Of a stretch of DNA of 64,000 nucleotides, positions 5,563 to 49,169 are shown in pieces; positions within the stretch are counted from its first letter, which is position 1; every line of letters starts with the position of its first letter. Below the pieces are notes generated by a model. It did no database searches. It was not told where the DNA came from and was given only the letters and a program-made list of their open reading frames with translations. Source of the DNA: Candidatus Thorarchaeota archaeon (GTDB lineage Archaea; Asgardarchaeota; Thorarchaeia; Thorarchaeales; Thorarchaeaceae); NCBI GenBank assembly GCA_019057475.1, contig DXJO01000027.1, positions 36,174-100,173 of the forward strand, in the 5' to 3' direction. The position numbers and the translations under genes were made by a program.

Positions 5563-5874
5563 TGTCCTTCGGGATACCGCCTCGCGCTGTTAGTTGATAC
5601 GCCGTTAACGAGATTGATGTCGTAAGTTACGTTTCTTTGCGTGCACCTATCTCAACCGTTCATTGTAGGTTGTACAAAGTTGGACACCGAAGTCTAGTAC
5701 GTCCAGGAAACGGCACTGGACTACTCCGTGAGGACCCTTCACAGGTGTGTCATATTCCTCAGAGACCAATGTCGTATTGGTCTATATAAAGCCCACAATA
5801 AAATTGTCCAGATACGTCTAACTTTGCAGCAGCTATTTGCAACCCTTAATATACTATGAAAATTGTTTAACTAA

Positions 5875-5962
5875 GGGTCCGGATGCAGAAGGGTTACATA
5901 CTCTCCCCCCTCCTAACCACGCGAATACCTACTTTCTATTTTCCTTCTGCGTTCGAAACCCC
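5875..5962 (+). ncRNA. Candidate ~88-nt structured small RNA, copy A
   Basis: 13-bp plus 4-bp terminal stem with G-U pairs on the + strand. TTAATA box 29 nt upstream. Shares two 13-nt motifs with 48935-49024. Confidence 0.55.
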
Positions 5963-6045
5963 TACCTATTCTACGGCCCTAACTAGTTATCGCAGAGAGC
6001 TGACAACATTGTCATGCCTCACAGTTGTCAAGCACTTGCCGGGTT

Positions 6046-6320: not shown

Positions 6321-7472
6321 TCACTTGCGGATTACGATGTTTGCGCCATCAATCCGAACATGCGGAAACTCGTCTGACAGCTCAAGTAGCCAGTCCTCCA
6401 GTTCCTCAACACTACTGAAGCGGAGCAACGTGGCTAGGCGATTCATGGGTAGGGTTTCATACCTTCCGATTATCTTTCGGAGCTGCATCATCCTGAAGGC
6501 TGCAAGCTCTGCTTTTTCTTCCTCAGTACGGGGCGCGATCTTGTCAATCCACGGACTGCCCAGCGGAAAGTCCCACACGTAGATCTCACCCTCAAGAGTA
6601 CCCGCAACAAGTTGACGACCGTCGCTACTCATCGCTAGGGAGTGCACGTTCTCCGTGTGGTCAAGTGTCCTCAACAGAACACCTCCGTGCATTTGCCATA
6701 CTCTGATTGTGCCGTCATTGGCGCCTGTCACAAGGTATCGTCCATCGTGGGACACCCATAGTAGCAGGATTGCGGAGGTGTGACCTGACAAGGTGTTCAG
6801 TAGCGTTCCAGAATCTACATCCCAGATATGAACATCTCCATCCTGACCACCTGAAATCATGAAACGTGATTCAGGTGTGAATACGAGTCGAGTTACATTC
6901 CCTTTGTGCCCATGAAGTGTATGGAGTAGAGATCCCGTATCGAGGTCTCGTAGCCATAGAATGCCTGTGGGATTCCTCCCGAGTGCCCTCTTTGAGCCAG
7001 ACACAAGATAGGCCCCATCTGGACTAACAGCAATTGAATAAACTCCTGCGCCTTGTTCCCGGATGCGGGCTATAACTGAATGACCAATATCCCACACACG
7101 ATCCTTGCCGTCGTCCCCACCCGTGATAACGTAGCAGTCATCTGGGGTGATGGCGATTGCAATGGTATGCAGTGAGTTTGGTGTGAGTGTATTCAGTGCA
7201 GTGCCAGCTTCGACGTCCCAGACCCTCACTGCGGAATCCCTATCTGACACCGAGAAAACGCGGCGTCCATCAGAAGTCGCAACCAGTCCGTAGACAGGGC
7301 CCTCGTGACCAATGAACGTATGCACAAGCTTGCCTGTCTGAATGTCCCAGAGCCGGACTGTAGCGTCTTGACCACCTGAAACCACATGACGCCCGTCCTG
7401 GGTCAAAACCACCGACCAGACTGTGAACTCATGCCCCTCGAGCAAGACTGTAAGTTCGAGATTCCCTTCCAC
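6321..7472 (-). CDS. WD40 repeat protein (7 blades) with C-terminal PCI/winged-helix-like domain
   Basis: Seven GH..(W)D-type repeats. The tail RYETLPMNRLATLL..VEELEDWLLEL..RIDG resembles the PCI consensus. Confidence 0.85.
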   Translation of the reverse strand: MEGNLELTVLLEGHEFTVWSVVLTQDGRHVVSGGQDATVRLWDIQTGKLVHTFIGHEGPVYGLVATSDGRRVFSVSDRDSAVRVWDVEAGTALNTLTPNSLHTIAIAITPDDCYVITGGDDGKDRVWDIGHSVIARIREQGAGVYSIAVSPDGAYLVSGSKRALGRNPTGILWLRDLDTGSLLHTLHGHKGNVTRLVFTPESRFMISGGQDGDVHIWDVDSGTLLNTLSGHTSAILLLWVSHDGRYLVTGANDGTIRVWQMHGGVLLRTLDHTENVHSLAMSSDGRQLVAGTLEGEIYVWDFPLGSPWIDKIAPRTEEEKAELAAFRMMQLRKIIGRYETLPMNRLATLLRFSSVEELEDWLLELSDEFPHVRIDGANIVIRK

Positions 7473-7647: not shown

Positions 7648-7754
7648 TGGTGGACCGGGTGGGATTTGAACCCACGACCTTCTGGAGTTTTGATCTCCTG
7701 AGAGATCCAGAAGGATTGCAAACCAGACGATCTGCCGGGCTAATCTACCGGCCC
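7648..7754 (-). tRNA. tRNA-Ala(UGC) with a 30-nt intron at 37/38 (7687-7716) and encoded CCA
   Basis: Acceptor stem GGGCCGG/CCGGTCC with G3-U70. Anticodon arm TCTGG-TTTGCA..T-CCAGA; T arm GTGGG-TTCAAAT-CCCAC. Positions 32-35 (UUUG) pair with intron CAAA as in a bulge-helix-bulge motif. Confidence 0.92.
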
Positions 7755-48767: not shown

Positions 48768-48934
48768 TATTGGTTCCTCGAAAAACGATGCTCAAGACCC
48801 CCCTCAAGAGGGTTCCGTTATGGCAAGAAAATCGATGCATTTCAAGGTATAACGGAATGCAACTCAATCGGGGGTATAGGTTTCTCAATGACTCTGACGG
48901 TAGGGCTTATTAGGGAGCAAGTTACATTATACCT

Positions 48935-49024
48935 TGGTGGTTTGGGCCAGCGGGGCACCTATTTTCTATACATGCCCTCATAACTCCCCCCTCCTACCAG
49001 TTGTCCTACTGGTTCAAGCCACCA
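48935..49024 (+). ncRNA. Candidate ~90-nt structured small RNA, copy B
   Basis: About 22-bp terminal stem with five G-U pairs; TTATTA 28-29 nt upstream; T5 tract downstream; shares motifs with copy A. Confidence 0.55.
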
Positions 49025-49169
49025 CCTCATTTTTCCAATGCAACTGGTTTCAAGAGCACAGGCGATTCTTGGTTAAGATAATGGCATCAAGTCTGTTTGA
49101 AATAAATCCCCCTGAGCAATACTTTATGAGAGAGTGGCTATCTCAAAGCGGCAACGTGGTGGAGAATTG

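Follow-up and report, generated by a model that had tools for sequence, protein, structure and literature searches.

The window (the whole 64,000-nt stretch of Thorarchaeia DNA analysed) contains two hairpin-forming elements on the plus strand, copy A (5875-5961) and copy B (48935-49024). Copy A lies beside genes for a TFIIB-type zinc-ribbon protein and a WD40 protein, and copy B beside genes for an OsmC protein and a DUF6989 protein. A first-pass annotation of the window had proposed that the two belong to a new small-RNA family, and all of the strings that it quoted were found in place.

Folded as the plus strand, copy A forms GGGU plus a 14-bp stem around a 48-nt loop, with a minimum free energy (MFE) of -25.4 kcal/mol (z = -3.78) that was matched by 0 of 200 shuffles. 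Its minus strand folds with a z of only -1.82, so that the G-U pairs favour the plus strand, and the fold z-scores agree with the strand from which the RNA had been read. Copy B closes with a 16-bp terminal stem (MFE -36.4, z = -4.58). The stems of the two copies have no sequence in common, as had been remarked, because the stem covaries across the family to which they belong (see below). A TATA-like box was likewise confirmed upstream of each copy (Table 1), and a nearer TTATAC of copy B is missing from its orthologue in genome G005. The T5 run that follows copy B (49030-49034) is likely a terminator.

Copies A and B share an exact 13-mer (5903-5915 and 48984-48996) and a second motif identical at 12 of 13 positions (5927-5939 and 48957-48969), the order of the two motifs being swapped between the copies. 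Within the window alone, the sharing of a 13-mer is no more than chance would produce once two mismatches are tolerated. Searching the whole 3.34-Mb genome for further copies, as had been suggested, yielded six exact occurrences of the 13-mer against about 0.1 expected, and five of the six sit in hairpins with a common core. The sixth lies on contig C26, in antisense orientation within a 100-nt intergenic gap; relatives have not kept it, and we do not count it as a member. In that gap (L005:1485-1587, about 6470-6570), which is flanked by genes on the same strand, the complement of the 13-mer is on the mRNA strand, in a structure of G-runs and CCCCGG repeats; the match is probably coincidental, although it might be a target site.

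Two other features of the window were recorded. A sharp-edged dispersed repeat of about 192 bp (5655-5846, plus strand) abuts the TATA-like box of copy A. The same genome has 13 copies that are 150 bp or longer, with identities of 82-94%, and the four genomes of the genus that also carry the repeat have 12-21 matches apiece. A TATA-like box lies within it, some 75 nt short of the 3' end, and the repeat is possibly a MITE or else a transposon-derived RNA that stands alone. At 7651-7754 on the minus strand lies a 104-nt tRNA gene (Rfam tRNA, 54.7 bits), long enough for an intron.

Table 1. Coordinates of the features of copies A and B in the window
Feature	Position	Strand	Remarks
Copy A, TATA-like box	5847-5854	+	21-30 nt 5' of the stem; kept in 3/3 same-genus orthologous loci
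Copy A, terminal stem, 5' strand	5875-5893	+	From the fold; changes in same-genus orthologues GU/GC- or UG/CG-compatible
Copy A, GUUACAU	5893-5899	+	
Copy A, loop	5894-5941	+	Without the family's inner stem and AUGCCCUCA loop
Copy A, C-rich block	5901-5921	+	Includes the 13-mer at 5903-5915
Copy A, second motif	5927-5939	+	
Copy A, terminal stem, 3' strand	5942-5961	+	From the fold
Copy A, ACCU tail	5964-5967	+	After the stem; kept in 4 genus orthologues
Copy B, TATA-like box	48906-48913	+	About 29-30 nt 5' of the stem; present in the G005 orthologue
Copy B, terminal stem, 5' strand	48935-48950	+	From the fold
Copy B, counterpart of U-rich inner-stem strand and conserved ACAUGCCCUCA loop motif	48957-48980	+	From alignment to models R1/R2
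Copy B, C-rich strand AACUCCCCCCUCCUACCA	48982-48999	+	Equals the family consensus
Copy B, terminal stem, 3' strand, then ACCU tail and T5 run	49009-49034	+	

Structure and distribution of the RNA family

Hairpins on contigs C19, C24 and C36 share with copy B a core of about 53 nt, set between arms that are unrelated from one element to another but self-complementary. The best-conserved member, which in this genome is at C24:50368-50460 on the minus strand, lies downstream of a radical-SAM (tes-like) gene and, in most genera, also upstream of a phzF-like gene. More diverged paralogues are present in the same genome at C20 (about 5750; a minus-strand match, the sense strand being the opposite one), C52:2814-2897 (plus strand) and C32:6197-6292 (plus strand), which brings this genome to eight members or more, graded in their divergence.

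The consensus fold, derived from an alignment of 19 canonical copies, has a 14-bp terminal stem, a weak 5-bp extension and a 6-bp inner stem (UUUCGU/ACGAAA) whose 15-nt loop, UACAUGCCCUCAAUU, contains AUGCCCUCA; on the 3' side an unpaired C-rich strand of 17 nt, CUCCCCCCUCCUACCAC, follows, and ACCU stands after the stem in 19 of 19 members. In this alignment 96.3% of the cells are paired (35-54% in slid controls), and ten pairs show changes on both sides, which was reached by 0 of 500 shuffles. Such shuffle-based statistics are inflated by the relatedness of the genomes, but the slid controls and the diversity of pair types back the stem independently. Double changes were seen in 21 pairs, four of them in the inner stem, when 26 paralogues were aligned to the model, an alignment which is biased towards the structure by having been fitted to it. 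The G-U pairs fix the RNA strand, a conserved BRE/TATA lies upstream, and in several copies a T-run follows the stem. The predicted RNA is about 90 nt long, in some cases with an extra 5' leader of 45-75 nt. Two paralogues (L150 and L153) carry insertions of 30-55 nt, forming extra hairpins, within the loop or the C-rich strand, and in one genus the RNA has been duplicated in tandem 3' of the tes-like gene, as two matches 331 nt apart (G017:C26).

BLAST, with one copy as the query, recovered the core from 23 out of 24 genomes in the same taxonomic family. Identity was 98%, and these genomes represent 16 genera and contain 2-8 matches apiece. A covariance model of the family (R1) matched 84 of the 87 genomes of the order and all of its 17 genera, with 1-9 copies per genome; as the class holds a single order, this set represents the whole class. 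By contrast, R1 had no match in 112 genomes from 21 other families of the phylum. Rfam gave no match at gathering score for either copy in the window and none at E≤10 around them, E-value scans of five orthologous loci returned nothing relevant, and full-text literature searches found no description of this RNA. The family is thus previously uncatalogued and class-specific: the annotation's claim of novelty held, with neither a known Rfam family nor a MITE end behind the elements, and the family is far larger and better conserved than the annotation could have seen, being class-wide and showing strong covariation. Taken with its separateness from neighbouring genes, the structure, strand and distribution of these elements make them a stand-alone, Thorarchaeia-specific family of structured RNAs, predicted from sequence to be independently transcribed; that this is a real ncRNA family we consider almost certain.

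The identical core also evidently causes recombination, or assembly chimeras and breaks, in Thorarchaeia MAGs. At G005:C161:235-373 (plus strand), the 5' arm of the C19-type paralogue continues into the 3' arm of the tes-phzF orthologue together with its flank, and many model matches lie at contig ends (for example G046:C395:1-86 and G071:C224:1-91), so the family explains contig breaks in these genomes.

Copies A and B are diverged paralogues, peripheral members of this larger family. Both have the closing stem (4 + 14 bp in copy A, 16 bp in copy B), the ACCU tail and the upstream TATA-like box. The C-rich strand of copy B is identical to CUCCCCCCUCCUACCAC and its loop motif is retained, with a degenerate inner stem. 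Copy A keeps GUUACAU and a C-rich block that equals CUCCCCCCUCCUACCAC apart from one inserted A, but the inner stem UUUCGU/ACGAAA with its AUGCCCUCA loop is absent, both its 3' strand and the loop motif having been lost, and the second motif lies on the other side of the C-rich block. Copy A is thus a rearranged member and not the archetype of the family. The model scores follow the same gradation, with R1 giving 112.6 bits to the C24 member, 63.8 to C19, 53.6 to C36, 27.8 to C32, 23.6 to copy B and 22 to C52. Copy B is a borderline match, with E 0.17 genome-wide and 0.0016 in 31 kb, values that, like all E-values of these models, are rough; its score under R2, a second model including paralogues, is inflated by its presence in the R2 training set. 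Copy A has no R1 match at E≤1, and R2 places it correctly by position and strand (5877-5962, plus) with 10.4 bits and a rough E of 3.6, which is not significant because copy A is without the inner stem and loop.

Both copies were compared with their counterparts within the genus. Copy A is maintained: when its site is set beside the syntenic one of three same-genus genomes, three of the four sequences have an identical loop while the flanks diverge, and the changes in its stem go from G-U to G-C or from U-G to C-G. Judging from these comparisons, copy A is keeping its stem, C-rich strand and tail under selection, and is therefore a simplified or specialised sibling and not a dead copy. Copy B and its counterpart in one same-genus genome differ at a single position out of 90, whereas their flanks have diverged by about 10%; no counterpart was found in the other four same-genus genomes, which are incomplete.

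The C-rich strand and its possible partners

The C-rich strand contains CCUCCUA, the same 7-mer that stands at the 3' end of the 16S rRNA of this genome (...CACCUCCUAAG). GGAGG is overrepresented between positions -18 and -12 relative to start codons, so Shine-Dalgarno (SD)-led initiation is used in this organism, and the CCUCC complementary to its SD falls, in the predicted fold, within the unpaired strand, as in an anti-RBS sRNA. The annotation had further described the loop as the reverse complement of an SD and start codon, GGAGG-n9-ATG; this antisense geometry is present in copy A (n9) and copy B (n8), but is absent from the canonical members.

Searches for targets gave little. Exact complements of 11-13 nt occurred only antisense to the RNA genes themselves, and a degenerate scan allowing G-U pairs returned 127 registers without enrichment at start codons. 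Loci on C10 and C14 with 12-13 nt of complementarity proved to be a duplicated segment, with no tRNA, and were set aside. Nor did 550 SD-start sites show any bias towards the extended complement of the RNA; as these sites are not extended towards the RNA sequence, any masking of ribosome-binding sites would be generic.

A further complementarity lies in the 5' leader. Many orthologues and paralogues carry there a bipartite purine box (for example GGUAGG...GGGAG), which in several genera ends about 22 nt before the stem and is complementary to both halves of the C-rich strand. Duplexes between leader and strand average -13.7 kcal/mol (-10.2 for shuffles), and 39% of the leaders are equalled by no more than 5 shuffles in 100. 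The box also forms a local hairpin.

The best explanation overall, and one to which we give not quite even confidence, is that these are Thorarchaeia-specific stand-alone RNAs of about 90 nt which would act in trans via their C-rich strand. That the action is in trans rather than in cis seems to us quite probable; base-pairing to SD-like RNA as the main mode is a more tentative proposal. By such pairing, the invariant C-rich strand and the loop would engage purine-rich, SD-like sequences in trans and would lower translation initiation, in the manner of anti-RBS sRNAs. The complementarity of the leader's purine box suggests a self-masking switch, in which the box of an RNA's own leader would pair with the C-rich strand and thereby alternate the molecule between closed and open states. 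Several observations speak against SD pairing. The core is invariant over 53 nt, a length beyond what a seed requires, and this suggests a protein or a tertiary fold; in the main orthologue, the leader box may keep the C-rich strand paired; and the genes' own antisense strands are the only sequences with 11 or more complementary bases.

With no long targets, unbiased SD sites and 53 invariant nucleotides, an RNA bound by protein stays a strong rival, possible if on balance unlikely. The RNA would then be a scaffold or decoy, that is, an RNP component or a sponge, with its pyrimidine strands read by a C/U-binding protein that it would titrate or guide; candidates are the KH-type aDim2/Pno1 and Nob1, which hold the 16S 3' end in 30S maturation, and an Sm-like protein on the U5 tract. 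The near-invariance of the core at each of its 53 positions across 16 genera fits such a role, as do its two CCCUC-type motifs and U5 tract, the identity of CCUCCUA with the 16S 3' end and the similarity of the CACCU tail to it, and the lack of convincing targets from the RNA searches. Of the protein partners that the annotation had named, TROVE is absent, and three LSM genes are present but are also found in three archaeal control genomes, and hence say little. The U tract, moreover, is predicted to be paired in the inner stem, and no protein gene is consistently linked to the copies (MBL-fold and methyltransferase neighbours each recur in only two loci); the partner is purely conjectural.

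Rather improbable is a compact, pseudoknotted sensor or catalytic RNA, in which the C-rich strand would be structural and paired with the 5' leader. Its appeal lies in the bipartite leader boxes, whose distance is fixed and whose complementarity extends to both halves of the strand and exceeds that of shuffles, and in the extreme conservation of the core, the many copies and the permutation-like order of motifs in copy A relative to copy B. Against it, one genus has no leader box, nor do many paralogues in which the TATA is 26-35 nt away from the stem; the box forms a local hairpin as well, and Rfam models of ribozymes and riboswitches gave no match; the strand, for its part, never varies, so that covariation cannot be shown for this pairing.

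We regard it as very improbable that copy A is a decaying pseudogene or chance look-alike, or that the elements as a whole are mobile DNA (MITE ends) or small-protein genes. Copy A lacks the inner stem and loop and has no significant model match, but within the genus its loop is more conserved than its flanks and its pairing survives the changes in the stem. It adjoins the 192-bp repeat, but this stops at 5846, before the TATA box and stem, and so lies outside the copy; stem differences between copies are compensatory, unlike those of transposon or insertion-sequence ends, and the core motif has 0 matches in viral contigs. One reading frame through the core is open for 80-120 codons in three loci, but 17 of 62 loci have no start codon, the ends are variable and all three codon positions are invariant, and a small protein was rejected on these grounds. 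A box C/D or H/ACA guide sRNA was also rejected: neither box is found in the consensus, copy A or copy B, the tail is ACC and not ACA, and Rfam gave no matches.

Least probable of all is that the RNA regulates the gene downstream of it in cis, as a leader or riboswitch (of the phzF-like gene in the case of the orthologue and of the DUF6989 gene in that of copy B). In many genera phzF does lie 60-140 nt downstream of the orthologue, and copy B ends 110 nt 5' of a start at 49134, but phzF has a conserved TATA of its own between RNA and start codon, some genera have another or an opposite-strand gene 3' of the RNA while the upstream radical-SAM link stays, the paralogues have unrelated neighbours or no same-strand gene downstream, and a T-run follows the stem in several copies.

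Relation to known RNAs and implications

Among archaeal RNAs, the closest in kind are sRNA154 and sRNA41 of Methanosarcina mazei, which are anti-RBS sRNAs (PMC5867862). Like the Thorarchaeia RNA, they are stand-alone and intergenic and display unpaired, anti-SD-like pyrimidine tracts for which masking of ribosome-binding sites in trans has been proposed (PMC5867862). The Thorarchaeia RNA has no sequence or structural homology with them, and differs in being multi-copy, with a near-invariant core of 53 nt and a long closing stem. In Firmicutes, hairpin-displayed C-rich motifs of RsaE/RoxS and the UCCC loops of Staphylococcus aureus RNAIII pair with G-rich SD regions. These RNAs resemble the Thorarchaeia RNA in having several unpaired C-rich motifs and sibling copies; they are, however, bacterial and unrelated in sequence, and use short CCCC loop seeds where the Thorarchaeia RNA bulges a 17-nt strand out of its 14-bp stem. 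Rfam models of the Firmicutes families with C-rich seeds did not match it.

The annotation had also drawn an analogy with Y RNAs, which are similarly about 90-100 nt long, pair their 5' and 3' ends into a long stem, have an internal loop rich in pyrimidines and exist as several paralogues. The likeness is one of outline only and did not stand up as an analogy: Rfam Y_RNA gave no match, and a search of this genome (96.4% complete) for TROVE/Ro60 (PF05731) found none while detecting its positive controls, so that the partner of a Y RNA is lacking.

The 16S rRNA 3' end offers another parallel, with its CCUCCUA and a tail after a hairpin (helix 45 in 16S rRNA, as against CACCU after the stem of the Thorarchaeia RNA); only these 7 nt are common to the two, the rest of the RNA being unrelated to rRNA, and mimicry is put forward as a hypothesis. 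On this bolder proposal, which we think distinctly unlikely, the family would be a class-wide, multi-copy mimic of the 16S 3' end, consisting of a hairpin and an anti-SD-like tail with CCUCCUA exposed. It would globally tune SD-dependent initiation, or sequester those factors of small-subunit maturation that hold the 16S 3' end, with the leader switch hiding or exposing the mimic. If true, this would be a ribosome-directed RNA regulator with no described archaeal counterpart.

Of all known groups, the Asgard archaea stand nearest to eukaryotes, and, to our knowledge, almost nothing is known of their non-coding RNAs. The family described here has a core conserved like segments of rRNA and a fold that covariation proves, is near-universal in Thorarchaeia in several copies, and is missing from Rfam and from the sister classes. 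It provides annotation pipelines with a new model and, for a lineage that is uncultured, opens a concrete way into the study of post-transcriptional control or of an RNP.
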